Below, one piece after another: positions 25,173-49,470 of a stretch of 64,000 nucleotides of DNA. Under the pieces are notes generated by a model. It was not told the origin of the DNA. It saw only the letters and a program-made list of their open reading frames with translations, and made no database searches. Numbering within the stretch: the first letter of the stretch is position 1; each line of letters opens with the position of its first letter. Source of the stretch: an uncultured delta proteobacterium. GTDB taxonomy: Bacteria > Desulfobacterota > Binatia > JACPRU01. The stretch is taken from the NCBI GenBank assembly GCA_963745025.1, contig CAVUWD010000005.1, forward strand, positions 32,001 to 96,000, written 5' to 3'. Both the position numbers and the translations under genes were made by a program.

Positions 25173-26294
25173 TTGAAGCCCGGGAGGGAACCAGCGGGGT
25201 GGAAGGAGACGGGCTCCGCGGTCGTCGAGAGCCCGAAACCGCTCGGCAGGGTCGCCGGGTGGAACGATGCAGCACGGCTCTTGTCGAAGGAGCTCGTCCA
25301 CTTCTACCAAGCGCTCCTCGGCGAGTACATCGCCCTCTTCAAGATCACACCCGGATTCGCGCGCGAGCTTTTCCGCAGCGGCGTGTATGTGTCGAATCTG
25401 ACGTTCCGCAAGCTTCCCTACCGCCGCGAGCGGTCCGACCTCGCGCGCTTGCGCGAGTGGAACCCGGGCTGGATCTTCCGCGAGGACTTCGATCCGCGCA
25501 CTTGGATCATCGTGTTCCTGCACGGCTACATCGACAACACCGGCGCGGAGCGCGTGGCCTACAAGCTCGCCCGTCTCGGTTATCAGGTCTATCTCGTCCG
25601 CTATCCGTTCCTGCAGAGCGTCCGTCGCACCGCGATCAGGGTCATGGAAGTGCTCGAGACCATCCAGCATCGAGAGCACGGCAAGCGCATCGTGCCGATC
25701 GGCCACAGCCTCGGCGGCTTCATCTGGGACCACCTACTGCTCCACCGTCCGGAACTGGCGAAGCGCTACCGCATGCCGCTCTACATCTCGATGGGAAGCC
25801 CTCGCTTCGGCACGCTGCCGGCGCACCTCGGCATCGGTCGCAGCGCCCGTGAGATGCGTCCCGGAAGCGCGCTCGTGCTCGACCATCTGAAGCGCTCGTA
25901 CCCGCCGGCTCTGGAGGTGTACCCGTTCATCAGCCGATTCGACATCTTCGTGCTGCCGATCGAGACTGCGCTCCTCAAGCAGGGGATCAACTACGTCTTC
26001 AGCGAGACGGGCCACCTCGCGCAGGCGACGCGCAACGAGACCGTGCGCGCGATCGAGGAGATCATGGCTTCGCCGCGCGAGATCCTCGAGGCGCGCGCCG
26101 AGAAGCGGCGCTTCCACCCCTCGGGGCTCACCTGGCTGCTCAGCAGACTCCCGAAGCCTGCTCTCGAGCGGCTCGGAGTGGCGGGTATCCTGGATTACGT
26201 GCTCGACGGTGCGGAGTCGCCCGAATTCTGGATCCGCATCGTGCACCACGACGTGCGCAGTGGACGGTTGCCGCTGCTGAAGCGCGGACCGTGA
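25173..26294 (+). CDS. Lipase/esterase-like alpha/beta hydrolase
   Basis: VFLHGY, GHSLGG, MGSPRFGT, SRFDIFVLP, TGHL; start uncertain. Confidence 0.8.
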   Translation: MKPGREPAGWKETGSAVVESPKPLGRVAGWNDAARLLSKELVHFYQALLGEYIALFKITPGFARELFRSGVYVSNLTFRKLPYRRERSDLARLREWNPGWIFREDFDPRTWIIVFLHGYIDNTGAERVAYKLARLGYQVYLVRYPFLQSVRRTAIRVMEVLETIQHREHGKRIVPIGHSLGGFIWDHLLLHRPELAKRYRMPLYISMGSPRFGTLPAHLGIGRSAREMRPGSALVLDHLKRSYPPALEVYPFISRFDIFVLPIETALLKQGINYVFSETGHLAQATRNETVRAIEEIMASPREILEARAEKRRFHPSGLTWLLSRLPKPALERLGVAGILDYVLDGAESPEFWIRIVHHDVRSGRLPLLKRGP

Positions 26295-26419
26295 AAAAAC
26301 GGCTGCCGGCTACCGCGAGAGACTCAAGAAGTCTTTGCCGGTAGCCGGAAGCCGGTAGCCGCGATTGCTTTCACTGCCCTCTGCGCCCGAAGTGCAGGTA
26401 GAACGAGAGCGTGAAGTAG
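26134..26419 (+). repeat. Left copy of ~280 bp direct repeat (hydrolase 3' end, intergenic hairpin, pcs 3' end)
   Basis: Near-identical to 35935-36213; differs by a few substitutions and one extra heptamer unit. Confidence 0.95.
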
Positions 26420-26775
26420 ACAATCGACGTCGGCGCCGCCGTGTCGTTCTTTGACGCCGAGTGAGGCGGTTCCAGGAACGGCTGAGCCGCTCGAGACCCG
26501 CGACATGCTCGGGCTCGCCATCGAGATGTCGCGCGGCGCGCCGATCCCGGACCCGAAGCACGGCGTGTTCTGCATGTGACGCCGGGCCGAGCCGCCAGCC
26601 ATTCACCGACGAAGCCGTTGCCCAGCTGCAACGCGCCCAGCAGCTGGCGCCGCCAGATCTCCGGTTCGCGAGGCCGCTGCGGGCCGTGAACCTCGCCGAG
26701 GCGCCGTCGAAGGCGATCCCTTCCCAGCCTCGCGGGGCGTCAAAGAGCGACACGGCGGCGCCGACGTCGATTGTC
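26419..26775. repeat. 40 bp inverted repeat pair (26419-26458 / 26736-26775, one mismatch)
   Basis: GACAATCGACGTCGGCGCCGCCGTGTCGTTCTTTGACGCC versus reverse complement of GGCGTCAAAGAGCGACACGGCGGCGCCGACGTCGATTGTC. Confidence 0.9.
26484..26579 (+). pseudogene. C-terminal scrap of an acyl-CoA (methylcrotonyl-type) carboxylase carboxyltransferase gene
   Basis: EPLETRDMLGLAIEMSRGAPIPDPKHGVFCM* resembles the family C-terminus ...TRxVLGLAL...AP....FGVFRM*. Confidence 0.65.
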
Positions 26776-26807
26776 GCTTGAGAGCGATCGCTCCGCGCTC
26801 GTAACCT
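26737..26807 (+). promoter_or_regulatory. Putative operator plus promoter of the 26871 gene
   Basis: GCGTCA-N4-GCGACA-N19-TGTCGC then TTGAGA-N18-TAACCT; same architecture at 35691-35760. Confidence 0.6.
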
Positions 26808-26870
26808 CCGAGCATGATGAATCCACGCGCTCGTTCTCACACAACGAGCGCACGACGAAAGGAGAAGCAC

Positions 26871-27482
26871 ATGGACGGTATGATCGGTTTCATGTTCCTC
26901 GCGGGCTACCTCGGACTCGAAGCGACGTCGTTCACTGTTCACGCGCTGTCGTACGGCGCTCAGGGAGCGGTCTACGTCGCGGATGAGGCTCGGCGGGCGG
27001 TCGGCGCCGGGCCGTCGGTCACCACGTTCGAGGTGGAGCTCATCGCCCCCGCGGCTGCGCCCGCGGGCGAGCGGGAAATGTTCGCGTGCGCGCGGCCGTC
27101 GTCCGATACTCCTTACGGTGAGCGGATCCACTGCCTGAATCGCTCCTACTTCACCAGCTTTGCGGGCTTCGCCGAACCCGATGGGGGCTCGAAGGCTTGG
27201 CGGTTCCAGGTTGCCGTCGACGATGCGCCCGAATCGGTGTGCCTCGATTTCTACGACCAGGTCGAGGTCGGGAGAGGATCGTGGTTCATCGCGGGATCTG
27301 ATCCCCGGTACGGGAATTCCCTCGCCGCGCTGCCCACCGTGACCAGCCGGCGGCCGCCGCTCGGCACCTTCTGTCTCTCCGGCGTCCCTTCCCCGGGTGC
27401 AGTGACCGTCGGCGGGCTCTCCTGCCCCGCCGGCAATCCATCCACCTGCGAGTCGGCCGCCGTGGCCATGGTGCCGAAGTGA
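26871..27482 (+). CDS. Hypothetical Cys-containing protein, possibly exported
   Basis: AAGGAG RBS before ATG 26871; hydrophobic N-terminus; 6 Cys; no family recognised. Confidence 0.65.
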   Translation: MDGMIGFMFLAGYLGLEATSFTVHALSYGAQGAVYVADEARRAVGAGPSVTTFEVELIAPAAAPAGEREMFACARPSSDTPYGERIHCLNRSYFTSFAGFAEPDGGSKAWRFQVAVDDAPESVCLDFYDQVEVGRGSWFIAGSDPRYGNSLAALPTVTSRRPPLGTFCLSGVPSPGAVTVGGLSCPAGNPSTCESAAVAMVPK

Positions 27483-27504
27483 CCCGGCGCAGCGGCTCAC
27501 ACGT

Positions 27505-27539
27505 TGTCGCTTGGGCCCGTGCGTCGCTCTGCGCAATGT
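27505..27539 (+). promoter_or_regulatory. Putative promoter of the lipid operon with a TGTCGC half-site abutting the -35
   Basis: TGTCGC-TTGGGC-N17-CAATGT. Confidence 0.4.
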
Positions 27540-27576
27540 CCGCGCCCATGCGAAAGCACATCGGGAGGTCACGCGA

Positions 27577-28212
27577 ATGACCACGACGGCGCTCCACTGG
27601 CGGCTTGCCGCATCCAACGTTCCGAACGCGATCTCGCTCGCGCGGCTGGTGGCCGCTCCGGTCTTGCTCGCCGCCGCGCTGCGCGCCCAGCAGGACCTGT
27701 TTACCTGGCTGCTGCTCGCCTGCCTGCTGAGCGACATCGCCGACGGCCTGATCGCGCGGGGCTTCGCGCTTGCCTCCGAGCTCGGCGCCCGCCTCGATTC
27801 GGCCGCCGACATGGCCGTGTTCTACGTCGCGGTCTTCGGTGTCTTCGTCTTCCAAGGCGACTTCGTATTCACGCACTGGGTGCCGATCCTCGCCGTGATC
27901 GGCCTCTACGTCGTGGAGGTCGTCGCCGCGCTCGCGCGCTACGGCCGGATCTCCAGCTTCCACACCGTGCTGACACGGCTCTCGGCCTACGCGCAGGGAG
28001 GGTTCGTGCTGTCGCTCTTCCTCTGGGGGTATTCGCCAATGCTGTTCTGGGCGGCGATCGGCCTGAGCGTGCTCGCCTACACGGAGGAGCTGGCGATCGT
28101 CTGGTTGCTTCCGCAGTGGAGGGCCGACGTGCGGGGACTCTATTGGCTGTGCCGATCGAGCGACGCGACGGTCGCCGCCTCCACCCAGCCCTGCGCGCTC
28201 GACCGGCGATGA
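27577..28212 (+). CDS. CDP-alcohol phosphatidyltransferase (PgsA-like)
   Basis: GGAGG RBS; NVPNAISLARL; SDIADGLIAR...LGARLDSAAD signature. Confidence 0.9.
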   Translation: MTTTALHWRLAASNVPNAISLARLVAAPVLLAAALRAQQDLFTWLLLACLLSDIADGLIARGFALASELGARLDSAADMAVFYVAVFGVFVFQGDFVFTHWVPILAVIGLYVVEVVAALARYGRISSFHTVLTRLSAYAQGGFVLSLFLWGYSPMLFWAAIGLSVLAYTEELAIVWLLPQWRADVRGLYWLCRSSDATVAASTQPCALDRR

Positions 28213-29108
28213 CCGGCTGGCTCGCCATCGTCAACCCGCGCTCGGGCGGGGCCCGTAACCGCTCGTCGTTCCGCCGGGTCCTGCGCCTGCTCGAGCGGGT
28301 CGTCGAAGAGATCGTCTTCACCGAGCAGCCCGGCCATGCCCGTGAGCTGGCATCGCGGGCAGGACGCTACCGTGGGCTTGCCGTCGTGGGAGGGGACGGC
28401 ACCTTGCACGAGGTCCTCACCGGAACCGACGGCGGCAGCCAGCGGCTCGCTCTGGTGCCGACCGGGCGCGGAAACTCGCTCGCCAGGGACCTCGGCCTCA
28501 CCAGCGCGCTGCGCGGCCTCGGCGCCATCGAGACCGACTTGACAACCCGCGTGGACCTCGTCGACGTGGTCCTCGAAGACGACAGCGGCCGACGATGCGC
28601 GTTGCGCTCGGCGAGCACGGTGGCGATCGGCTACCCGGTCGCGGTCACCGCTCGAGCGGACCGCAGCTTTCGCATGGCGGGCAGCTATTGCTACCTGGCC
28701 GCGGCGATCGTCGAATCGGTCCGCCAGCCGCGCTTCACGATCGACCGCGCGTACGACGGCGCACCGGCCGAAAGCCGGGGGTTGACCGGCCTCATCCTCA
28801 ACAACACGCGGCACGTGGCGAACTTCGTCGGCTTTCCCGACGCGCGCTGCGACGATGGCCGCTTCGACGTGCTGGAGCTCGACGCCGGTTTCGTGCAGCA
28901 GAATTTGCACAACGTGTCGGCTCTGTGCGGCTCGCGGCACGCATTTTCCCCGCCACCCTTCCAGGCCCGCGCTCTCGAGGCTCGCTTGAACGAGCCGACG
29001 AGCGTGATGATCGACGGCCAGATCTACGCGGGCGTCACGAGCCTTCGAGCCTGCCTGATCCCGGCGGCGCTCGAATGCTCGCGCGCGGAACACGGAGCCA
29101 CGGCATGA
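28209..29108 (+). CDS. Diacylglycerol/lipid kinase family protein (YegS/DgkB-like)
   Basis: IVNPRSGG, VVGGDGTLHEV, VPTGRGNSLARDLG, DDGRFDV, MIDGQ; ATGA coupling. Confidence 0.9.
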   Translation: MTGWLAIVNPRSGGARNRSSFRRVLRLLERVVEEIVFTEQPGHARELASRAGRYRGLAVVGGDGTLHEVLTGTDGGSQRLALVPTGRGNSLARDLGLTSALRGLGAIETDLTTRVDLVDVVLEDDSGRRCALRSASTVAIGYPVAVTARADRSFRMAGSYCYLAAAIVESVRQPRFTIDRAYDGAPAESRGLTGLILNNTRHVANFVGFPDARCDDGRFDVLELDAGFVQQNLHNVSALCGSRHAFSPPPFQARALEARLNEPTSVMIDGQIYAGVTSLRACLIPAALECSRAEHGATA

Positions 29109-29839
29109 TCTCGACCCTGCTGCTCTTCACCGCCACCTCGTTCTCCGTTGGCGCGGCCGGCCTCCGCTGGGTCGACCGCCGATCGAGCCCGGAGAGGCGC
29201 CGCGAGCGGCGGGTGAAGCTCGCCGGCTACTTCGCCGTCGTCCACGCCGTGTTGTTCTGCGCCTGGCTCGGCCGCGCGGCGCTCGGTACGCTGTTCCTCG
29301 GGGTGGCGGCGGTCGGGGGAGCCGAGCTCGTCCGCGCTCACGGCTGCGGGGATCGCCGTGTGGCGATGCGCTCGCTCGCTGCGACGCTCGGCTGCTACGG
29401 CGCTCTCGCGGCCGGCCTCGTCGCCTTCGCCCTCACCTCGGCTCCGGCGTCGACGGTCTACGTCTACCTGATCGTGGCCGCCTTCGACGGCTTCAGCCAA
29501 GTCGCCGGAGAGTCGCTCGGGCGCCGCCGCCTGGCGCCGCGAGTCAGCCCGAACAAGACGATCGAGGGAGCGCTCGGCGGGCTCTTCGCCGCGGTCTCGA
29601 CCGCCGTCGCGCTGCGTTCCCTGCCCCAGCTGGACTGGTCGGCGGCCACCTCGGTGGGCGCGCTGACCGCCGCCGCCGCGCTCGGCGGCGACCTCGCCGC
29701 CTCGTGGGTGAAGAGGCGCAACGGGATCAAGGACTTCGGCACACTGCTGCCCGGTCAAGGAGGCGTGCTCGACCGTTTCGACAGCCTTCTGCTCGCCGGC
29801 TCGGCCGCACAAATGCTCTCGAGGACGATTCTGCCATGA
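29105..29839 (+). CDS. Phosphatidate cytidylyltransferase-like (CdsA family)
   Basis: LAPRVSPNKTIEG, GDLAASWVKRRNGIKDFGTLLPGQGGVLDRFDS; ATGA coupling. Confidence 0.9.
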   Translation: MISTLLLFTATSFSVGAAGLRWVDRRSSPERRRERRVKLAGYFAVVHAVLFCAWLGRAALGTLFLGVAAVGGAELVRAHGCGDRRVAMRSLAATLGCYGALAAGLVAFALTSAPASTVYVYLIVAAFDGFSQVAGESLGRRRLAPRVSPNKTIEGALGGLFAAVSTAVALRSLPQLDWSAATSVGALTAAAALGGDLAASWVKRRNGIKDFGTLLPGQGGVLDRFDSLLLAGSAAQMLSRTILP

Positions 29840-30993
29840 ACGTATTCGTCACCGGCGTCACTGGCTTTCTCGGCAGCCACTTCCTGCATCGGCGGCTCGA
29901 CCGCCCGGGGCTCGCCGCCGTCTTGGTGCGGGCCGACACGGACGAGGCGGCGCGCGCACGTTTACAGCGCTCGCTGGCCGTCGCCGCCGCCGCTCACCCG
30001 CCGAGCGTCGCCGCGACACGCACTCGCGTCGCGGTCGAGCGGGGCGACGTGTCGCGCGAGGATTGCGGTCTCGAGCCGCGGCGCATCGAAGCGCTGCGTC
30101 AGGCGGGCATCGACGAGTTCTGGCATTTCGCCGCCAGCCTGGCGTTCGAGGCCCATCGGCGGGACGAGATCGCCGCGCAGAACGTCGGCGGCGCCCGACA
30201 TGCGCTCGAGCTCGCCGCGAAGCTCGGCGCACGGCGATTCGTCCACGTATCGACCGCCTACGTCGCCGGTCGGCGTACCGGGCTCGTGCCGGAAGCGCTG
30301 CACCCCGCCGACGGCTCGTTCAACAACGTCTACGAGGAGACCAAGTGCCTGGCCGAGCACGCGATCGCCCGCGCGGCGTCGACCCGCGGAATGGACTGCC
30401 GAATTCTGCGCCCGTCGATCGTCGTCGGCTCGTCGCGCACCGGCCGCGCCGGCGGCAGCGAGAGCGGGCTCTACGGCTTCATCCGCCTGCTCGAAGAGCT
30501 GCGCCGCGCCTTGCCGAGCGGCCGCCCGCCGATCCGGCTGCTGGGAGACCCGCGGACGCCGCTCGCCTTCGTCGCCGTCGACCGCGTGGTCGACGACATG
30601 CTCGCCCTGGCAGATCGCGGCTTTCCCGCCGGTCCCGTCCACCATCTGACCCCGCGACGCTCGATCGACGCCGCCACCGCTCTGGCGATCGTCTGCGCCG
30701 AGGTGGGCACCCCGGACGTCCGCATCGAGCCGGCGCGCCGAGGCGAGCGAACGCCGCTCGAGGCGCTGATCGACCAGCGCATGGAGTTCTACGGCGGATA
30801 CCTGCGCGACCCCAAGTTCTTCGAGCGCTCTCCCGTCGCCGACCACGAGGTCGGCGAGGACGATCTGCGTCGCCTCACGCGGGAGTATCTGCGAGAGCTC
30901 GCGACCGCACCGGCTCGGCGAGACCCACGGTGCGCAGCAGTTTCGCGAACCGCGGTTCGGAGCGCAGAGGATCGAGCAGCGGCTCGACTTTGA
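29836..30993 (+). CDS. Extended SDR, thioester / fatty-acyl reductase-like (NAD_binding_4)
   Basis: FVTGVTGFLG, WHFAA, HVSTAYVAG, NNVYEETKCLAE, LRPSIVVG; ATGA coupling. Confidence 0.88.
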   Translation: MNVFVTGVTGFLGSHFLHRRLDRPGLAAVLVRADTDEAARARLQRSLAVAAAAHPPSVAATRTRVAVERGDVSREDCGLEPRRIEALRQAGIDEFWHFAASLAFEAHRRDEIAAQNVGGARHALELAAKLGARRFVHVSTAYVAGRRTGLVPEALHPADGSFNNVYEETKCLAEHAIARAASTRGMDCRILRPSIVVGSSRTGRAGGSESGLYGFIRLLEELRRALPSGRPPIRLLGDPRTPLAFVAVDRVVDDMLALADRGFPAGPVHHLTPRRSIDAATALAIVCAEVGTPDVRIEPARRGERTPLEALIDQRMEFYGGYLRDPKFFERSPVADHEVGEDDLRRLTREYLRELATAPARRDPRCAAVSRTAVRSAEDRAAARL

Positions 30994-32593
30994 GGCGCGT
31001 CAGGAAGCCCGAGCGCTCCTCGCACGCCTGCTCGGCGAGGTCGAGCGCCGCCTCCAGCTCGCCGAGCCCGATGTCGACGGCGCACGCATACGCCGCCGAG
31101 ACCGGACGCTCCTTGGAGAGCGCCTTCAGGCTGCGCAGGACCTTCCGCGCCTCGTTGCGCCTTCCCGCCAGCGCGTGCGCGTAGCCGAGGAGCGCGAGCG
31201 GCGTGAGGTCCGCCGGCGCCAACTGCCGCGCCCGCTCGAGCGCCGCGATCGCCTCGTCGTGCAACGATCTCTGCAGGCAAGCCATGCCGAGGCAGGTATG
31301 CGCCAGCGGAAAGCTCGCATCGAGCTCGAGCGTGCGCCGCAGCCGCTCGATCGCCGCTTCGTACTGGCGCGCCTCGTAGAGCGCGAGCCCGATCTGCGTA
31401 CCGACCAGCACGGACACCGGATCGAGCCGCTCGGCGGCCCGCAGCTCGCGCGTCGCCTCGTCGCGGCGCGCGAGCAGCGAAAGGAACACGCCATACCACT
31501 GGTGGGCGATCACGCAGTTCGGCCCGAGCTCGACCGCGCGCCCGAATTCTCGCTCGGCGTTTTTCCAGTCCCAGTCGTAGAGGTAGCTGACTTCCGCCAG
31601 CAGGGCGTGGGCCTCGGGCAGCGACTCGTCGAGCTCGATCGCCTTCTGCGCGGCCGCCCTGGCCTTCGGGTAGACGGCCTTCGGCGGCTCGGCCCCGTAG
31701 TAGGCGAGGAGGTTGTAGTAGTCGGCGAGACCGGTGTGGGGCAGCGCGGATCTCGGGTCGAGAGCCGCCGCGCGCTCGAAGCTGGAAAACGCCCGGCCGA
31801 ACGCCTCCGGCGTCCGCTTGTTCAGCCAGAACCGACCGTACAGGTAGGCCTCGTAGGCCTCCGCGTTCGTCTCACGCCGGCCCCGCGGAGCGACGTGCGG
31901 CGCGAGCGCGACGCGGACCTTCTGTGCGATCGTCGCCGCGACCTCGTGCTGCAGGGCGAGCAGGTCGCCGAGATCGCGATCGTACGTCTCGGCCCACAGC
32001 TCGCTCTGATCCTTCACCTTGATCAGGTGAGCCGTCACCCGCACGTGGCGGTTCCCGCGCCGAGCGCTGCCGCCGACCAGGTAGTCGACGCCGAGCTCGC
32101 GGCCGATCTCGTCGGCGCGCTTCTTTGTTCCCTTGTATGCCATGGCGGACTGGCGGGCGATCACCCCGAGGCGCTCGGGATTCAGCCGGCCGAGCTCGAC
32201 GATCATCTCTTCGGTGATACCGTCGCTCAGGTACTCGTGCGCCGGCTCGCGGCTCCAGTTCTCGATCGGCAGCACGGCGATCATGATGCGCCGCTGCTCC
32301 GCGGCGCGCTCGAGATCGGAGCGCCGCGCCTTCCACCACGCGTCGAGCTCGGAGCGATAGGCGTACACCGAGCCGAGCCGCTGATGGAGATGGCGGTGAA
32401 CGGGCAGGCCCTCGCTCTTCTCCCAGCGCTGGACGGTACGGACCTCTCGGCGAAGCTGAGCGGCGATCTCCTTCCAGGAGTCGAGGCGGTCCGCGTCCGG
32501 GGAACCGGGCGATGGCGGGGCGCCGTCGTTTGCCGTCCTTCGGTCTGCACCGCCCACCGGGGCATCATCGCAAACAGGATCCGCCGCGGTCAA
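30875..32593 (-). CDS. Putative regulator: N-terminal HTH, TolB-N/adenylate-cyclase-associated domain, TPR repeats
   Basis: RLDSWKEIAAQLRREVRTVQRWEKSEGLPVHR; IAVLPIEN...DGITEEMI; EAYEAYLYG; multiple TPRs; DPLRSEPRF; start uncertain. Confidence 0.88.
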   Translation of the reverse strand: MTAADPVCDDAPVGGADRRTANDGAPPSPGSPDADRLDSWKEIAAQLRREVRTVQRWEKSEGLPVHRHLHQRLGSVYAYRSELDAWWKARRSDLERAAEQRRIMIAVLPIENWSREPAHEYLSDGITEEMIVELGRLNPERLGVIARQSAMAYKGTKKRADEIGRELGVDYLVGGSARRGNRHVRVTAHLIKVKDQSELWAETYDRDLGDLLALQHEVAATIAQKVRVALAPHVAPRGRRETNAEAYEAYLYGRFWLNKRTPEAFGRAFSSFERAAALDPRSALPHTGLADYYNLLAYYGAEPPKAVYPKARAAAQKAIELDESLPEAHALLAEVSYLYDWDWKNAEREFGRAVELGPNCVIAHQWYGVFLSLLARRDEATRELRAAERLDPVSVLVGTQIGLALYEARQYEAAIERLRRTLELDASFPLAHTCLGMACLQRSLHDEAIAALERARQLAPADLTPLALLGYAHALAGRRNEARKVLRSLKALSKERPVSAAYACAVDIGLGELEAALDLAEQACEERSGFLTRLKVEPLLDPLRSEPRFAKLLRTVGLAEPVRSRALADTPA

Positions 32594-32745
32594 AGCGGCC
32601 GAGCCTGCTTGTGGCTGCCGTGGCCGCGCCTGCTATGCCCGCGCTGCGCGTCCGTCCGGGGCCCGGCGTGACAGCGAGGCGGCTTCGGGGGTATGCAGCG
32701 CACAGGCCGTCTGGAGGGCGGCCGCCGCTCGCCTTCGACGCGACC

Positions 32746-33693
32746 GTGAAGAGGATCCGCTTCCGCAAGCTCAGCCGGCGTTACCTGGACCTCGAATTCG
32801 CCACCGAGGGCGACGTCGCGGTACGGATCGTGGAGCGGCCGGGACGATGGATGGCGGCGGACGAGGTCGCCAAGATGGTGGAAGAGCTGCGCTCGGTCAT
32901 CGCGCGGGCGCTCGGCGGCCGAGCCTTGGACTACGGCGTCTTCACCGGCGAGAAACAAACGCTCGATCGAGCGGTCGTCACCCTGCTCTGCGAGCGTGCG
33001 ACCGGCAAGCCGATCGCCTTCAACGCGCTGTCGCTCCTCAGCCTGCCGCTGCGCGGACGCAGTGTGGACGTGGTCCATCTCGGGCTGGCGATGGTCGATC
33101 CGGCGCACCGCGGCCGCAGGCTCTCGGCGGTTCTCTACGGGGTCACCTGCATGCTACTGTTCTTCCGCAACCAGCTGCGGCCGATGTGGGTGACCAGCGT
33201 TTCGCAGGTGCCGTCGGTCGTCGGCATGGTGACGGAGACCTTCAGCAACGTCTTCCCGTCCCCCGACCCGCGCAAGCGTCGCTCCTACGACCACTTGATG
33301 ATCGCCCGCGAGATCATGAGGTCGCATCGCGCGGTGTTCGGCGTGAGCGAGCACGCCGGGTTCGACGAGCAGCGGTTCGTCATCACCGACGCCTACACCG
33401 GCGGTTCCGACAACCTGAGGAAGTCGCTCGCCGAAGCGCAGCCGCACCGCATCGACGCCTACAACCAGATGTGCGCGCGCCAGCTCGACTATGCGGTCGG
33501 CGACGATTTCCTGCAGGTCGGACAGATCGACCTGCAGACCGCGCGAAACTTCCTGCTGCGCGACGTCCCGCGCGCCTGGCTGCGGTCGCTCGTCTATCCG
33601 CTGATCTTCCTGCTGGTCGGCCACTCGCTCCTCCCGGTGCTGCACTGGCTGAGCCCGGGGCGCTCGATGGGGGATCTCAGACCACGCACGTGA
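32746..33693 (+). CDS. Hypothetical protein, probable GNAT-like fold
   Basis: VVHLGLAMVDPAHRGRRLSAVLY resembles GNAT motif A; start uncertain (32635 or 32746). Confidence 0.7.
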   Translation: MKRIRFRKLSRRYLDLEFATEGDVAVRIVERPGRWMAADEVAKMVEELRSVIARALGGRALDYGVFTGEKQTLDRAVVTLLCERATGKPIAFNALSLLSLPLRGRSVDVVHLGLAMVDPAHRGRRLSAVLYGVTCMLLFFRNQLRPMWVTSVSQVPSVVGMVTETFSNVFPSPDPRKRRSYDHLMIAREIMRSHRAVFGVSEHAGFDEQRFVITDAYTGGSDNLRKSLAEAQPHRIDAYNQMCARQLDYAVGDDFLQVGQIDLQTARNFLLRDVPRAWLRSLVYPLIFLLVGHSLLPVLHWLSPGRSMGDLRPRT

Positions 33694-33737
33694 CGACGCC
33701 GGCGAGTGCCCGCGTCCCGTTCGGAAGGAGTCCGTCG

Positions 33738-34979
33738 ATGCTCTCGAACCTCTCGGGCCGCGACATCACCGACATCTTCGTCACGTGGGCGGCTGCGTTC
33801 GGCGTGCTCGCCTACGCGACGCACCTCGGCCGCGGCCGCACGCGCAGCACGCTCGAGAGCCGAACCCTCTTTCTTCTCTACTGTGCCGGAGCACTGTTTC
33901 TGGTGCGCGGATTCTACTGGCTGAACGACGAGAAGCCGCTGCTCGGGATGCTGACCTTCGCGCCGGTGACGCTCTTTCCGCTGGCCTCGACGCTGTTCGT
34001 CGAAGCGTTGTTGCGCAGGCACCTGCACATCCTCCTCAAGCTCTACATCGCCGTCGGAACGATCGCGTTTCTCTACGCGGACCTTTTCGCTCGGCTGGTG
34101 TCCCGAACGGACTTGCTGCTCGGGCTGCTGCTCTTCCAGGTTTCGACGCTCGCCGCCCTGACCGTTCAAGTGGTGATGCGCGATCGGCGGCAACTCTCCG
34201 CCGCGGAAAATCGCTTCATCGACGTGATCGCGGCCGCGTCGGTGGCGCTGATTCCGTTGACCGTCACGGACTACCGCAAGGTCTTCACCTGGATCTCCGT
34301 GCCGCGCATGGGCGGGATCGCCGGGCTGCTGTTCATCTACGCGCTGATGAAGCCGGGCGGCGACACGCGGCCGATACGGGCCGTGGGACTCGAAGGTCTC
34401 GGCTTGGTGGCGCGCGGCATGATCGTCGCCATCGTGCTGATCCTCGCCCTGGGCAGGGCGGACGGCGCATCCTTCGCCGACGCGCTGGCCATCGCCTTGG
34501 CCGCGATCTTGACGACGATCGTGCTCGAGCGGCTGAGAGCTCTGCAGCTCGAAAGCCGCGAGGCCTCGTTCCTCCACTGGTTGCTGCGAGCCGACACCCG
34601 CTCGTTCGAGGGCCTGATCGGCTCTCTGCGCGACCTTCCGCTCACCGAAGAGCACGTCACGCTGAAGGGAGCCGACTTGGAGGATTACGACAGCGCGGCG
34701 ATCTCGCGGATGTTCGCCGAGGGCAGCGCGGTGCTGAGCCTGTCGTCGCTGCGACACGAGATCGCCGTGCGCGGCGAAACGGCCGCGGAAGCCATGGAGG
34801 AGCTGGTCGACATTCTCGAGAAATACGACATGACGCACGTCGCGCTGCTGTGTCGCCAGCCGCCGACGCTTCTGCTGCTCAATCTCCCGCTGGTCGGCAC
34901 GCAGCTACACGAGACGCAGATGCTTCTGATCCAGAAGCAATTTCGGCTGCTGGAGCGAGATGCGGCGGCGGTCGCGTGA
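33738..34979 (+). CDS. Hypothetical polytopic membrane protein with soluble C-terminal domain
   Basis: AAGGAG RBS; about 9 hydrophobic segments then ~140 aa soluble tail. Confidence 0.8.
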   Translation: MLSNLSGRDITDIFVTWAAAFGVLAYATHLGRGRTRSTLESRTLFLLYCAGALFLVRGFYWLNDEKPLLGMLTFAPVTLFPLASTLFVEALLRRHLHILLKLYIAVGTIAFLYADLFARLVSRTDLLLGLLLFQVSTLAALTVQVVMRDRRQLSAAENRFIDVIAAASVALIPLTVTDYRKVFTWISVPRMGGIAGLLFIYALMKPGGDTRPIRAVGLEGLGLVARGMIVAIVLILALGRADGASFADALAIALAAILTTIVLERLRALQLESREASFLHWLLRADTRSFEGLIGSLRDLPLTEEHVTLKGADLEDYDSAAISRMFAEGSAVLSLSSLRHEIAVRGETAAEAMEELVDILEKYDMTHVALLCRQPPTLLLLNLPLVGTQLHETQMLLIQKQFRLLERDAAAVA

Positions 34980-34981
34980 GG

Positions 34982-35018
34982 GCGAGCCGAGGCGCGGCTC
35001 CTCGGCTCGCGGGCTTTC
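34982..35018 (+). terminator. Hairpin after the membrane protein gene, possible terminator
   Basis: GCGAGCCGAGG / CCTCGGCTCGC 11 bp stem; only a short T run. Confidence 0.4.
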
Positions 35019-35114
35019 AGTCGCCCTCGAACGTGATCCGCTTTGGGCGAGAGCTCGAAATGCGCGTTGTAGGGCGTCTCGATGATCATAGGCGGTTCCT
35101 CGTGGCCGCGCCGG

Positions 35115-35645
35115 TCAGCTCCCGCAGCCGCTCACGCTCGTCTCGACGCGGCCCAGCAGCTGACACGAGACCTCCTGCAGCGGCTGAGTGAGGCGCACTT
35201 CGCCCCAAAAGACCTCAAAGACCGTGCCTTCGGGGCAGCGGTCGGCGTTTGGCACCAGGAAATGCGTGGTAGATGCGGGCGCGGACCTGGCGGCGGGCTC
35301 GATGGAGGGCTGGCGCTCGCCGCGGCAGATCCGCAGGTCGAAGCGGATGTGCTCCCCTGGAGGATAGAAGAGCGCGTTGTTCAGGTTCGAAGGGTCGAGC
35401 GTCTCGACTTCGAGCTCGCTGCCCGCCGCGTCGAACAAGTGAAAGGCGACGAACGACAGGCAGGTCCCTCCGGGAACATCCTCTCCCGTGTACACTTCCG
35501 CCTGGATCGTGCAGCCCGCGGCGTCCGCAACCAGCGCCTCGGAAACGGTCCTCGGTCCGCCACCGCCGCCGCCACAGCCCTGCAGCAACAGCGGGATCGC
35601 GAGCGCCGCGCATCCAGCCCAACTCGATGATCTCTTTCCCGTCAT
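35115..35645 (-). CDS. Hypothetical Cys-rich lipoprotein
   Basis: GGAGGAG RBS; lipobox LQGC followed by poly-Gly; 6 further Cys. Confidence 0.72.
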   Translation of the reverse strand: MTGKRSSSWAGCAALAIPLLLQGCGGGGGGPRTVSEALVADAAGCTIQAEVYTGEDVPGGTCLSFVAFHLFDAAGSELEVETLDPSNLNNALFYPPGEHIRFDLRICRGERQPSIEPAARSAPASTTHFLVPNADRCPEGTVFEVFWGEVRLTQPLQEVSCQLLGRVETSVSGCGS

Positions 35646-35690
35646 GGCTCTCCTCCCTGAGGCTTTCGCCTCTCGCCTTCGTCGGGCGGA

Positions 35691-35760
35691 ACTCTGGAGC
35701 CAGAGCGGCGGCGGGAAAAGCGACAAGGCACGGCAGAGCGCGGATGTCGCCGTTTGTCGC
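35691..35760 (-). promoter_or_regulatory. Putative operator plus promoter of the lipoprotein gene
   Basis: Minus strand GCGACA-N4-GCGACA-N19-TGTCGC then TTTTCC-N17-CAGAGT. Confidence 0.6.
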
Positions 35761-35934
35761 CTCGACCGCGGGTGGGGTGGGAAGCAGGTCGTCGGGGTCA
35801 GCCGACGGAAGGCCCGGGCGGCATGCCGCCCGCCGGGCACCGGCCGCCCAGGGGCATGGCGGCTACGAAGCCCGGAAAGTAATCGGCGTGGGCTGACGCC
35901 GCACGGCGTGCCCCGCACGTGAACCGCGGGCGCC

Positions 35935-36213
35935 GGCTGCTCAGCAGACTCCCGAAGCCTGCTCTCGAGCGGCTCGGAGTGGCGGGTATCCTGGATTACG
36001 TGCTCGACGGTGCGGAGTCGCCCGAATTCTGGATCCGCATCGTGCACCACGACGTGCGCAGTGGACGGTTGCCGCTGCTGAAGCGCGGACCGTGAAAAAA
36101 CGGCTGCCGGCTACCGCAAGAGACTCAAGAAGTCTTTGCCGGTAGCCGGTAGCCGCGATTGCTTTCACTGCCCTCTGCGCCCGAAGTGCAGGTAGAACGA
36201 GAGCGCGAAGTAG
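35935..36213 (+). repeat. Right copy of ~280 bp direct repeat
   Basis: Near-identical to 26134-26419; holds an orphan 3' stub of the hydrolase gene and the real 3' end of pcs. Confidence 0.95.
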
Positions 36214-36872
36214 TAGAGCGGAAACGCGAGCGAGCCGTAGACGAGAGCGGGGGAGGGCTCGGGTAGGCGAGCGAGCGCGACCATCAATGCCACGCCCCAG
36301 GCGAGTCCGAGCGCGATCGTCAGCGGCCGCAGAAACGGCTGGCGCGTCGGGTAGACGTAGCCGATCGGCACGAAGACCAGGAGCGACAGCAGGGCGAGGG
36401 CAACGGCGTTCGCACTCGGCGGAGCGCCGAGCGCGTACATGTAGAAGACCGTGATGTTCCAGTACGACGGAAAGCCCGTGAAGAAGAAGTCGGCGGTCTT
36501 GGCCGCGCTCTGGCAGAAGCCGTAGGCGCTGGCGAGGAGTGGCAAGGCGGCGATCGCCACCGCCCAACGGTCGGGCAGGAGCTTCATCTCGACGGCGAAG
36601 AAGATCGGCACCAGGACGTAGTTCAGGTAGTCGACGATGTCGTCGAGCTTGCTGCCGTCGTAGCTCGGCACGACCTCTTTGACCCGTGCGGCGCGCGCTA
36701 GCGTGCCGTCGGACGAGTCGATGGCGAGCGCTGCCGCCATCCACAGAAACGCCGCCCGGGCGTCGCCGCGAACCATGGCGACGAGAGCCTCGAGCGCGAT
36801 CACCGCGCCGAGGGCCGTGTAGAGATGCACGGACCACGCGAGGGTGCGCGAAGCCGCCGAGGAGCCGTTCAT
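36165..36872 (-). CDS. pcs: Phosphatidylcholine synthase (CDP-alcohol phosphatidyltransferase)
   Basis: AWSVHLYTALG, IDSSDGTLAR...VKEVVPSYDGSKLDDIVDYLNYV, FFTGFPSYWN. Confidence 0.85.
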   Translation of the reverse strand: MNGSSAASRTLAWSVHLYTALGAVIALEALVAMVRGDARAAFLWMAAALAIDSSDGTLARAARVKEVVPSYDGSKLDDIVDYLNYVLVPIFFAVEMKLLPDRWAVAIAALPLLASAYGFCQSAAKTADFFFTGFPSYWNITVFYMYALGAPPSANAVALALLSLLVFVPIGYVYPTRQPFLRPLTIALGLAWGVALMVALARLPEPSPALVYGSLAFPLYYFALSFYLHFGRRGQ

Positions 36873-38110
36873 TCCCGCAACGCGTTCGGCTCGAAGAGCA
36901 CCTGGACGACGTTGCCGTCCGGATCTTCGAGGTAGAGCGAGCAGCTGCCGTCGCGATGGCGACGCGGCGGCCGGACGACCGCGATCCCGCGGCGCGACAG
37001 CGCGCGGGCGATCGCGAAGACGTGCTCGGCGCTGTCGACGAAGAACCCGAGGTGATCGAGCGGCGATCCCTGCGCGGCACGCGGCTCGCGCGCGCGATGC
37101 AGGGCCAAATTGTCGCGGCCGCTCGACAGGTAGACGTTGTCGGCATCCGGCTGCCAGACGACGCGCATGCCGAACACGTCCTGGTAGAAGCGGACGGTCT
37201 CCTCGAGCTTCGAGACGTTGAGCGCCAGATGCGCAAGGCCGCGGGTCGCGATCGGCAGCTCCTTCTCCGTGAACTCGAGGATCGCCGCGGCGACCGCCTC
37301 GGGCGACTCCATCGGGAACATGTGCGTCGTGGCGGGAAGCGTGCGCCGCTCGCCGTGGACGAGGCGGCCGACGGCGGCCTCCGCGTCGCTTTCGGAAAAT
37401 GCGTCGCTCTCCGCGCCGCGCAGGACCAGACCCGGCACCGTGAGTCGCTCGAGGGCTCCCCAGCCGTCGAAGCCCGGCTCGGGGGCCATGCGGAAGACGC
37501 GGGCCTCGATCGTCGGCGGACATTTCAGGCGCACGCCGCCGTCGTCGGCGGCGAGGCCGTGATCCACGTAGAGGCGAAGCACGTCGTCGCGCCACTTCAC
37601 GAACGGACCGCGCCCGCGGTAGCTCTCGAAGACCTCGTCGTGGCTCCCCCACACCTCACGGCGCTTGAGTGCGCCGTTCGCCATTGGGTTGTCGCCGATC
37701 GATAAGTTGCGAAACTCGCGCGGAAACAGGATCGGATCGAGCAGTGCAACCGCGCGGAATAGGTCGGGCCGATCGGCTGCCGCTCCGGCCGTCGTCGTGC
37801 CGCCGAGCGAGTGGCCGACACCGAGCACCCGACCGAGCCCGAGCGCTTCGACGAACGCGACGAGATCGGCGATGAAGGTCTCCCAGCGATAGCCGTCGGG
37901 CGGCTTCTCGCTGTCGCCGTGTCCCCGGGCGTCGAGCGCGAATACGCGATAGCGGGTCGACAGCGCCTCGGCGATCGGCGTCCACACCCATGCGTGAAAA
38001 CCGGTCGCGTGGTGGAGAACCGCCGGCGGTCCACTTCCCCCGTAGTCGAGATAGTGGAGGCGGACGCCGTTCACGGAGACGAAGCCGCTAGCCGGAGTTG
38101 GGCGAGCCAT
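36869..38110 (-). CDS. Alpha/beta hydrolase fused to C-terminal VOC/glyoxalase domain
   Basis: LDARGHGDS, GHSLGG, THMFPME, then GLAHLALNV, FYQDVFGM, LDHLGF, LYLEDPDGNVVQV. Confidence 0.88.
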   Translation of the reverse strand: MARPTPASGFVSVNGVRLHYLDYGGSGPPAVLHHATGFHAWVWTPIAEALSTRYRVFALDARGHGDSEKPPDGYRWETFIADLVAFVEALGLGRVLGVGHSLGGTTTAGAAADRPDLFRAVALLDPILFPREFRNLSIGDNPMANGALKRREVWGSHDEVFESYRGRGPFVKWRDDVLRLYVDHGLAADDGGVRLKCPPTIEARVFRMAPEPGFDGWGALERLTVPGLVLRGAESDAFSESDAEAAVGRLVHGERRTLPATTHMFPMESPEAVAAAILEFTEKELPIATRGLAHLALNVSKLEETVRFYQDVFGMRVVWQPDADNVYLSSGRDNLALHRAREPRAAQGSPLDHLGFFVDSAEHVFAIARALSRRGIAVVRPPRRHRDGSCSLYLEDPDGNVVQVLFEPNALRE

Positions 38111-38196
38111 GAGCGCCGCTCCTGTTTAGCCGCGGCTCCGGGGCGAGGCAATCACGGGTTGAGCTGGTCGTTGCGGGCTGGTAGCAGGTTCCCCTC

Positions 38197-47274: not shown

Positions 47275-47946
47275 ATGGGGCGATCGAACGACGGCACCCG
47301 TCAGCGCCTGATCGCGGCGGCGAGCGAGCTCTTTGCCGAGCGCGGGTTCCACGCCACTACGGCGCGCGACATCGCTCGCCGTGCCCGGGTCAACCTGGCC
47401 GCCGGCCACTATCACTACGGCTCCAAGAAGGACCTCTACCTCGAGGTGCTCCGCGCGCAGTTTGCGACCATCCAGACCGAGCTCGAGCGGCGCGGCGGGA
47501 CGCGGCCGGCGGCGGAAATCGACCGGCTCGACCGCGCCGCGCTCGCGGAGCTGCTGTTCACTCGTATCAAGGTGATGCTCGACATGTTGATCGGGCCTCC
47601 CCCGGGGCTGCACGGCGCGCTCATGCAGCGGGAGATGACGGATCCCAGCCAGGCGCTGCCGATGATCGTTGCCGAGTTCATCGATCCGATGATGCGCGAG
47701 ACGGAGCAGATCGTCGCGCGGCTCATGCCGCGTCTCGGCCGGCGAGAGGTCGAGAGCTGCGCGATCAGCATCGTCTCCCAGGCGATCTTCTACCGGTTCG
47801 CGATGCCGGGGATCCTCCATCGCAAGCGCTGGAAGTCCTACCCGGCGGGCTTCGGTGCCGATCTGGCGCGGCACATCGCGGAATTCTCGCTGGGCGGCAT
47901 GGAGCGCGTCGGCGCGCGACGAGCGGGGAAACGACGTGCGTGCTAG
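47275..47946 (+). CDS. TetR-family regulator (CecR/YbiH-like)
   Basis: RLIAAASELFAERGFHATTARDIARRARVNLAAGHYHYGSKKDLY; heads the efflux operon. Confidence 0.92.
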   Translation: MGRSNDGTRQRLIAAASELFAERGFHATTARDIARRARVNLAAGHYHYGSKKDLYLEVLRAQFATIQTELERRGGTRPAAEIDRLDRAALAELLFTRIKVMLDMLIGPPPGLHGALMQREMTDPSQALPMIVAEFIDPMMRETEQIVARLMPRLGRREVESCAISIVSQAIFYRFAMPGILHRKRWKSYPAGFGADLARHIAEFSLGGMERVGARRAGKRRAC

Positions 47947-49470
47947 GAGCCTGCGTTACCGATCGCTCCCGTTGGTCGCGATCGCGGCTCCGGCCGGAGC
48001 ATCCTATCGAGCGAGCGTGGGCGTTCGAGCGGCGGTGGCGGCGATCGGCGTCTGCCTCGCCAGCTGCGCGTCGGTTGCGGATTTCGAGCGACCGAGCGGG
48101 GACGGCGGCTGGAGCGCGGCACGGCGAGTGGAGGAGCTCGGTGCGCTTGCTCGCCGCGCGGGCGTCGACTTCGGCGCCGCGCCCGAACCGACGCCCCCAA
48201 CGTCCCGGCCGCTCGACCTGGAGACGGCGCTCTCGATGGCGACCAAGGGGAACCGGCGGATCGCGATTTCGAAGAGTCAGCTCCAGGGCGTCGCGGAGCA
48301 GGTGCGGGACGTTCGCGGGCGCCTGCTACCGAGCACGGTCGGGTTCGGGCGCTACACCTGGTACACCGACGCCGAGCGCAACGCCGTCCAGCTGCCCGCC
48401 GGCCTCGCTCCCCCGGGCGGCGCCTCCATCGAGATCCGTCCGGTCGATGTCGGCACTCTGAATGGCACGCTCACGCTCCCGCTCGACGTGAGCGGCGAGC
48501 TCCGCTATGCGCTGGCGGCCGCGCAGGCCGGCTATCGCGGCGAGCAGGCGCGCGTGTGGGCAACGACGCTCGACCAGCAACTCGCCGTCGTGCGTGCCTA
48601 TTTCCAGCTGCTGGAGAACGAGCGCCTGCGCGAGGTCACGGAGACGAACGTGACGCTCGATCGCGAACAGCTGGCGAATGCGCAAGCGAAGTTCCAGAGC
48701 GGCCGCCTGACCAAGAACGAGCTCCTGGTCGTTCAGGTCGCGTTGCAGACCGACGAAGAGCAGCTGGACCAACGCGCGCTGGCGATCGCGCAAGCGCGGT
48801 ATGCGCTGAACCAGGCGATCGGCGCCGACGTGAACGCGCCGACCGAGCTCGCGGACGTCGCCGAGCGGCCGGTCGTACCGCCGGTCGAAGAGGCGCTGCG
48901 TGTCGCCTATGCGGACAATCCGGTTCTTCACTCGCTCGTCGAGGAGCAGCAGCGCCTGGAGGGGACGGCCCGCTCGCTCGTCCGTAGCCGCCTGCCGCGG
49001 CTCTCCGCCGGCGGCGCGATCGACTATTCCAACTCGCCGATCCTCGAGCCCCAAGACATCGGCTCGGGCTTCGTCGGCTTCAGCTGGGATCTCGGCACCG
49101 ACGGGCGGCGCGAGGCCGAGATCGCCGAGGCGCGGATCACGGCGGAGCGGAATCGTCTGGAGATCGAACGGCAGCTGCGCGAGCTCGAGGCGCGGTGCGC
49201 TCCACTCGCCAGGCGGCCGCCGAGCGCCTCGCCGCGCTCGCCGCCGCGGAGACGGCCGTCGGCCAGGCGGAGGAGAATCTGGCATCCGCCGGCAGCAGTT
49301 CGACGCCGGCCGCGCCACGAGCGAAGACGTTCTCGACGCCCAGGCGCTTCTGTCCGGGCAGCGCGCGATGCTCGCGAGCGCCCTCTACCAGGCCCACGTC
49401 GTCGCGCCGAGCTGCGGAGCTTGATGGGGCAGAGCACCGCATCCGAATCGAACCCGAGGTGAGCTCATGA
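47936..49470 (+). CDS. TolC-family outer-membrane efflux lipoprotein; 3' part frameshifted
   Basis: Lipobox LASC; LDLETAL; VVRAYFQLL; KFQSGRLTKNELL; FDAGRATSEDVLDAQ in a shifted frame. Confidence 0.85.

Follow-up and report, generated by a model that had tools for sequence, protein, structure and literature searches.

Do six genes that lie side by side on one genomic island make up a single lipid pathway, or do they belong to systems that share a piece of DNA? The question is raised by a stretch of 64,000 nucleotides (nt) from an uncultured delta proteobacterium of the Binatia (GenBank assembly GCA_963745025.1, contig CAVUWD010000005.1, positions 32,001 to 96,000), which we call the window and whose own coordinates are used below. 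Its island carries genes for a cytidine diphosphate (CDP)-alcohol phosphatidyltransferase (A), a lipid kinase (B), a CdsA-like cytidylyltransferase (C) and a reductase (D), followed by a putative regulator (R) and two further genes, E and F, whose products have no Pfam or NCBIfam match. A preliminary description of this DNA had read A–F as one regulated pathway to a phospholipid with a non-standard backbone. We think it probable that the island instead carries two unrelated modules: A–D, a mobile accessory phospholipid operon, and E–F, a separate, independent and widespread pair that takes no part in the A–D chemistry.

Two Overlapping Gene Chains on One Island

The window has about 69% G+C, and its genes were placed by third-position GC frame analysis together with a list of open reading frames (ORFs). 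This gave the order A, B, C, D on the plus strand, R on the minus strand, and E and F on the plus strand. ATGA overlaps at 28209, 29105 and 29836 link genes A–D, and a GGGAGG stands upstream of the start codon of A. They are translationally coupled, and their catalytic motifs are intact except for the change of DGE to DGQ in B. E and F are joined by a GTGA overlap, and E begins with a GTG codon, a start supported by 1,885 homologues of about 315 residues. The preliminary description had these points right: the chain of four genes, the two co-oriented unknowns beyond the regulator, and the PGQGG of C and DGQ of B, both of which are real in the translations and the alignment. Its placement of the genes on an island next to pcs is likewise borne out by an empty site in a related genome, by flanking direct repeats and by a pcs-like gene just outside. 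A scan for promoters and terminators did not inform the analysis, with 1 promoter-like site (0.5 expected) and 10 terminator-like sites (against 4.7 ± 2.3).

A–B–C Is a Conserved Gene Order in Uncultured Bacteria

The best 120 homologues of A span 52–100% identity, and our census of the A module covers 40 metagenome loci, 34 of which are testable, the other 6 having less than 300 nt downstream. B or C stands directly after A in 32 of these 34. Among all 40, we found A–B–C in that order in 15, A–B up to the end of the contig in 8 and A–C without the kinase in 9. G+C content runs from 39% to 58% across these loci, and their neighbours differ. A–B–C, without D, also occurs in a genome of the window's own phylum (G210). 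Many uncultured bacteria share the conserved order A–B–C (or A–C). In the 8 such loci with 8 kb of downstream sequence, D was not found after C, nor was it in G210, and the same 8 loci have no E or F either. A full-text literature search found no publication describing the A–B–C(–D) operon or the E–F pair.

Two side observations concern the surroundings of this module. In two A–B–C loci the gene immediately upstream of A encodes a GtrA-like membrane protein. The kinase-less A–C variant is found in low-GC contigs (L116, 7713–9719; L101, 7497–7931; L096, 654–1103), where an overlapping gene of 218 codons follows; its product has no Pfam match at an E-value ≤ 1e-4, and NCBIfam offers nothing beyond a faint lipase row (19.4 bits, cut-off 300).

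E and F Form a Widespread Pair with Other Partners

A relative of E is encoded in 574 of 598 pattern-matched genome-contig stretches, that is, at no less than 574 loci (at least 574), and the family keeps a mean column identity of 67% across phyla. The counts that follow refer to the best 80 of the 574 genome loci, which include Bradyrhizobium, Cupriavidus, Ensifer, Arenimonas, Gemmatimonadota and Acidobacteriota. In 79 of them F comes after E. A single one of the 80 (L004) has A–D and R near E, and the other 79 have no D-like neighbour. At another locus (L005), where E is 73% identical to that of the window, the E–F pair is present and no A–D gene lies within 10 kb. An A-type gene at an E-value ≤ 1e-20 was found in none of the three E–F genomes that were searched whole. 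Within the window's own phylum, E was detected in 1 of 400 other genomes, and weakly.

The genes that do accompany E and F elsewhere are of another kind. E and F are separated by a ThiF-family gene in 47 of the 80 loci (for example L006, 10949–15187), and an Acetyltransf_1 GNAT gene with a gene for an Acg/Rv3131-type flavin mononucleotide (FMN) oxidoreductase follows F in 39–41. The known proteins to compare are the Rv1355c-type ThiF–nitroreductase fusions and the Acg/Rv3131-type FMN oxidoreductases. ThiF-family and Acg-type genes flank F in about half of the E–F loci, whereas the window has the bare pair. One query returned no Acg-like match in the window's genome, which is 92.65% complete. 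As a side observation, E–F extended with ThiF, GNAT and Acg-type genes is a conserved system in cultured Proteobacteria.

The preliminary description had proposed structure prediction for the two unknowns. The AlphaFold model of E, with a predicted local distance difference test (pLDDT) score of 82.5, shows a GNAT fold followed by a C-terminal hydrophobic helix. Foldseek returned 45 matches at an E-value ≤ 0.001, and the listed rows are mostly GNAT-type acetyltransferases, the best being NatD (4ua3, E-value 2.8e-6). In a VIA comparison E aligned with Naa50 (6yzz) over 147 residues (Z 10.9, root-mean-square deviation 2.7), and the rows shown among the best 50 are all GNAT-type acyl- or acetyltransferases. 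F, in its model (pLDDT 83.3), crosses the membrane with about eight helices and ends in a small alpha/beta domain, and its invariant residues include E105, R110, H111, K117 and D194. F had no PDB match at an E-value ≤ 0.001 in Foldseek; weaker rows to seven-transmembrane (7TM) receptors, and a match in a protein-family atlas to HisKA_7TM-bearing clusters (score 0.90), are leads only. E would be a GNAT-fold acyltransferase anchored in the membrane, and F its polytopic membrane partner. The two make up a large, highly conserved family pair, which also occurs in cultured and genetically accessible Bradyrhizobium, Cupriavidus and Ensifer, and the neighbourhood of A–D alone does not justify annotating them as lipid genes.

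The Two Blocks Differ in Their Recent History

Among seven other genomes of the same family, A was found in one (G403), from another genus. Its island lies in a different context and has an extra 2.3 kb that includes a gene for an M48 peptidase. Nucleotide identity between the window and this locus (L146) is 95.2% for the gene of unknown function upstream of A, 97.8% for A, 98.9% for B, 99.3% for C and 99.5% for D; it is 94.5% for R, 90.3% for E and 85.0% for F. Other DNA of the window matches G403 at 76–85%. This pattern suggests that the A–D block alone was exchanged or homogenised much more recently than E–F, and because identity to G403 differs between the two blocks, we treat A–D and E–F as separate units.

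The distribution and the history of the genes both bear on the single pathway of the preliminary description, in which all six genes, under a helix-turn-helix (HTH) and tetratricopeptide repeat (TPR) regulator, would serve one product: D and E would build a ceramide-like or other non-standard backbone, and B, C and A would add a phospho head group. All six genes do share an island in two genomes, a metagenome contig of 36,747 nt probably carries homologues of A, D and E, and E has a GNAT fold and D is a reductase, as such a pathway would need. Yet F follows E in nearly every one of the best loci and A–D are near in one, the E–F genomes searched whole lack an A-type gene, no A–B–C locus with long flanks has E or F, and the further partners of E elsewhere are ThiF-like, GNAT and Acg-type oxidoreductase genes; the sharp difference between A–D and E–F in identity to G403 points the same way. 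R is beside E in 1 of the 80 loci; a fragment of its N terminus, 70% identical, lies divergent from A in one metagenome locus (L103). We therefore give the six-gene pathway very little credence. What holds of the earlier proposals is narrower. A–B–C and E–F are each conserved as clusters, and the six genes together are not; the cooperation of kinase, cytidylyltransferase and CDP-alcohol transferase agrees with the recurrence of the A–B–C order in the 15 metagenome loci and in G210.

The ceramide analogy fares no better. Bacterial ceramide synthesis uses serine palmitoyltransferase, a GNAT-type ceramide synthase and a reductase, and there are ceramide kinases besides. The island resembles this at the level of folds only, with a GNAT-fold protein, a reductase of the short-chain dehydrogenase/reductase (SDR) type and a DAGK_cat kinase near each other. 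It has no gene for an aminotransferase of the serine palmitoyltransferase kind, E travels with F and not with D, and D is of the thioester-reductase type; we set the two systems apart on these grounds, without a sequence comparison.

A–B–C as a Candidate Route to a Minor Phospholipid

If A–D is an operon of its own, what might it make? A scores 58.7 bits against PF01066 (cut-off 22), and the motif D53xxD56G57xxA60R61...G70xxxD74xxxD78 is invariant across 20 aligned sequences, so that score and motif both place it in the family. A second motif, R121-Y122...I125-S-S-x-H-T130, is also invariant in these 20 and marks a subfamily. A reaches no NCBIfam equivalog: its best rows are ClsA (38.9 bits against a cut-off of 240), archaetidylserine synthase, PssA (33 against 107) and PgsA (30.9 against 109.1), and phosphatidylinositol phosphate (PIP) synthase scores 16.6 against 170. 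In a profile search against solved structures, the matches to PgsA and PssA covered the motif region and no more and did not indicate the head group, and the protein-family atlas placed A in a generic family only. B matches PF00781 at 74.8 bits (cut-off 23.6) and has GGDGT; its nearest solved relative is S. aureus DgkB (2qv7, E-value 5.9e-8), and it scores 55.8 bits against TIGR00147 (cut-off 118.65). C matches PF01148 at 133.5 bits (cut-off 24) and aligns with TmCdsA (4q2g, E-value 3e-15) across the catalytic half, keeping the CdsA signature ...KD.G..LPGHGG.LDR.D apart from H to Q; it too lies below its equivalog cut-off (PRK11624, 81.7 against 385). The preliminary description had singled out PGQGG. 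Among 19 aligned sequences of the C subfamily, 10 have PGQGG and 9 have PGHGG, and the change is therefore a normal variant that is not diagnostic.

From these assignments a route can be drawn. B would phosphorylate a membrane lipid alcohol, C would convert the lipid phosphate into a CDP-lipid, and A would move the lipid phosphate onto an alcohol head group; the product would be a minor phospholipid of a specialised kind. Diacylglycerol is the default candidate for the substrate of B, because most A–B–C operons lack D. A–B–C would thus pack a complete route from a lipid alcohol to a head-grouped phospholipid into one mobile operon, and it may mark an overlooked minor bacterial phospholipid.

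The same three families, in the same order of chemistry, make up the canonical CDP-diacylglycerol pathway (a DgkB/YegS-type kinase, CdsA, and PgsA, PssA, ClsA or Pcs), with the catalytic motifs of A and C and the GGDGT of B common to both. The operon could then serve ordinary recycling, with B as a diacylglycerol kinase, C as a redundant CdsA and A as a redundant enzyme of the PgsA or cardiolipin synthase type, taking diacylglycerol to phosphatidylglycerol or cardiolipin and nothing else. The nearest solved relatives of the three proteins (DgkB, TmCdsA and S. aureus PgsA) and the best NCBIfam rows of A favour this reading. The details differ from the canonical pathway, however. A–C are extra paralogues joined in one mobile operon, their scores fall far under the equivalog cut-offs, and A, with additional invariant residues, makes a subfamily of its own, next to the DGQ of B and the PGQGG of C. 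In the same genome, Pfam matches number 2 for PF01148, 9 for PF01066 and 2 for PF00781, including C, A and B, and the other CdsA, on contig C16, scores higher than C. A housekeeping CdsA and eight other CDP-alcohol transferases are thus already encoded elsewhere, and A and C are spare paralogues. A common lipid made from a common precursor would need no dedicated CdsA kept beside A across distant lineages; that A is constantly accompanied by its own CdsA points to a special lipid or to a donor pool set aside for it. Recycling deserves to be taken seriously, and we nevertheless consider it unlikely.

A spare CDP-alcohol transferase paired with a spare CdsA is also known from Pseudomonas. Portions of one report (PMC13541209) describe an accessory cluster for 'membrane phospholipid remodelling' with a CDP-alcohol transferase, a PldB-like protein, PAP2, PlsC and CdsA, and give no product for it. 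Compared with that cluster as so described, the acyltransferase, phosphatase and hydrolase are replaced here by a soluble lipid kinase and a reductase.

An Altered Kinase Motif in the Window's Lineage

The DGQ of B is another matter than the PGQGG of C. Homologues of B at the metagenome loci have DGE in 19 of 19 cases, as does the G210 copy, and among 82 full-length representatives of the family 77 have DGE, 3 have DGD and 2 have DGQ, so that the residue is acidic in 80 of 82. DGQ is also present in the copy of B at L004. By this alignment DGQ is a rare, derived form. Passages from a study of human SK1 (PMC4466670) propose the equivalent Asp341 and Glu343 as Mg ligands and report their alanine mutants as inactive, and because the equivalent acidic residues of SK1 are needed for activity, B may be weakened or altered as a kinase in this lineage. 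Passages of another paper (PMC5021689) had nothing further to say about this motif.

Taken further, this could mean that B is dead here and that the cluster is decaying cargo, as the rarity of DGQ and the need for the equivalent glutamate in SK1 (according to the same passages) would suggest. The state of the genes speaks against it. All four ORFs are intact, with coupled starts and their other motifs preserved, and A–D are 97.8–99.5% identical between genomes of two genera; by our own reasoning, a glutamine might still bind the metal. We hold decay to be very unlikely.

Reductase D Is an Addition in One Clade

D matches PF07993 at 143.1 bits (cut-off 20.1), and TGxxGxxG and YxxxK are present in its translation. 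It also matches TIGR01746 (111.5 bits against 213.35) and PRK07201 (126.4 against 549), below both subfamily cut-offs. It shares these models, and the N-terminal half of the PRK07201 type, with fatty acyl-CoA and thioester reductases (NAD_binding_4, PRK07201-type, and the terminal R domains of nonribosomal peptide synthetases), but it stands alone at 385 residues, with no carrier, adenylation or second SDR domain, and only in its own clade has it been seen within a phospholipid operon. The four best homologues of D (57–71% identity) lie on contigs that match in size and source those of four of the five best homologues of A (72–79%); these contigs measure 36,747, 19,540, 11,776 and 6,907 nt. 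D thus appears, from matching contig sizes alone, to have been retained with A across the window's wider clade, and, as far as its distribution goes, it is a clade-specific fourth gene of the operon. The role of D in this clade would be the reduction of an acyl thioester, and the resulting fatty aldehyde or alcohol would enter or modify the route of A–B–C. A side observation concerns its 3' end. The convergent overlap with R is 119 nt long (30875–30993), and the final stretch of D, some 40 codons, resembles read-through into the strand antisense to R.

A bolder scheme would give D the first step: D would supply a fatty alcohol, B would phosphorylate it, C would turn it into a CDP-fatty alcohol, and A would join this to a polar alcohol, yielding single-chain alkyl-phospho lipids. 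D is translationally coupled to C, apparently stays with A in relatives where its identity has dropped to 57–71%, and scores best against thioester and fatty-acyl reductase models, all of which suits this scheme. To our knowledge, a CDP-alkanol route of this kind, with no glycerol or sphingoid backbone, is undescribed in any organism, and a literature search for it turned up nothing. Most A–B–C operons lack D, which implies that the core acts on a lipid already in the cell; the CdsA catalytic signature of C is intact but for H to Q; and DGQ occurs in exactly the D-bearing copies of B that were examined. On balance the CDP-alkanol route is distinctly improbable, and the reading that we favour leaves D as an accessory to a route that starts from a membrane lipid alcohol.

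Several observations weigh against two modules with these functions, and they keep our preference at no more than probable. A–D and E–F are neighbours in two genomes, and, together with the contig of 36,747 nt, this means that within the window's clade the two may be functionally linked. A stands alone in 2 of the 40 metagenome loci. A-type genes at an E-value ≤ 1e-30 are rare in reference genomes, with 2 in 401, 1 in 301 and 0 in 401 for the three phyla sampled, and in four reference genomes A-type genes at 29–42% identity have no B or C within 1.5 kb. The possible weakening of B by DGQ belongs here too. Finally, we infer the chemistry of B, C and A, the lipid substrate, the head group and the role of D from sequence.

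The Island and Its Boundaries

The island spans 26134–35934 (9.8 kb) and is bounded by direct repeats of about 285 nt (Table 1). A genome of the same genus (G401) lacks 26305–35934 while matching the flanks at 85–90%, which makes a clean empty site. The repeats comprise two families, D1 and D2, whose left copies are 99% and 97% identical to the right ones, and a three-way alignment with both copies of the window shows a single repeat copy at the empty site. Besides A–F and R, the island contains the gene of unknown function upstream of A and a putative lipoprotein gene at its far end. No integrase, transposase or recombinase family, no tRNA and no Rfam family was found at the island, and no direct repeats surround the island copy in L004.

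Table 1. Genes and repeats of the island and its right flank, in window coordinates
Feature	Position	Strand	Basis
Left direct repeat	26134..26419	.	3' end of upstream hydrolase-like gene, spacer and 3' fragment of pcs
Island gene of unknown function, 222 residues	26814..27482	+	Coding third-position GC pattern; no Pfam or NCBIfam match; 95.2% nt identity to G403 locus L146
A, CDP-alcohol phosphatidyltransferase, distinct subfamily	27577..28212	+	PF01066, 58.7 bits
B, soluble DgkB/YegS-type lipid kinase, DGQ for DGE	28209..29108	+	PF00781, 74.8 bits; PF19279, 27.3 bits
C, second, accessory CdsA-like cytidylyltransferase (PGQGG)	29105..29839	+	PF01148, 133.5 bits
D, stand-alone thioester-reductase-type extended SDR	29836..30993	+	PF07993, 143.1 bits
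R, putative HTH and TPR regulator, convergent with D, divergent from E	30875..32593	-	TPR families, weak HTH_23, NF047558
E, GNAT-fold protein with C-terminal hydrophobic helix	32746..33693	+	Structure model; homologue family
F, polytopic membrane protein with C-terminal alpha/beta domain	33690..34979	+	Constant partner of E; structure model
Putative lipoprotein gene, last of island	35115..35645	-	ORF starts MTGKRSS..., Cys after hydrophobic stretch; no family match; L146 fragments at 85-87%
Right direct repeat	35935..36213	.	Island ends at 35934; homology with G403 locus L146 also stops at 35935
pcs-like gene, outside island	36165..36890	-	Five best NCBIfam matches all Pcs models

The pcs-like gene is part of the flank. 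It is present in the island-free G401, which matches 35935–38136 of the window at 88.7%. Its five best NCBIfam matches, all to models of phosphatidylcholine synthase (Pcs), run from 209.6 bits (NF045886, cut-off 440) down to 142.9, against cut-offs of 300–440, and it scores 19.2 bits against PF01066 (cut-off 22).

Two minor observations concern repeats. A 49-nt inverted repeat (26419–26467 and 26727–26775, 92% complementary, 259 nt apart) lies at the island's inner edge and starts at the very point where the left direct repeat stops. Farther along the window, at about 47932–48021, there is what looks like a dispersed short repeat: an element of about 80 nt with more than 25 scattered matches in G401, at 81–88% identity.

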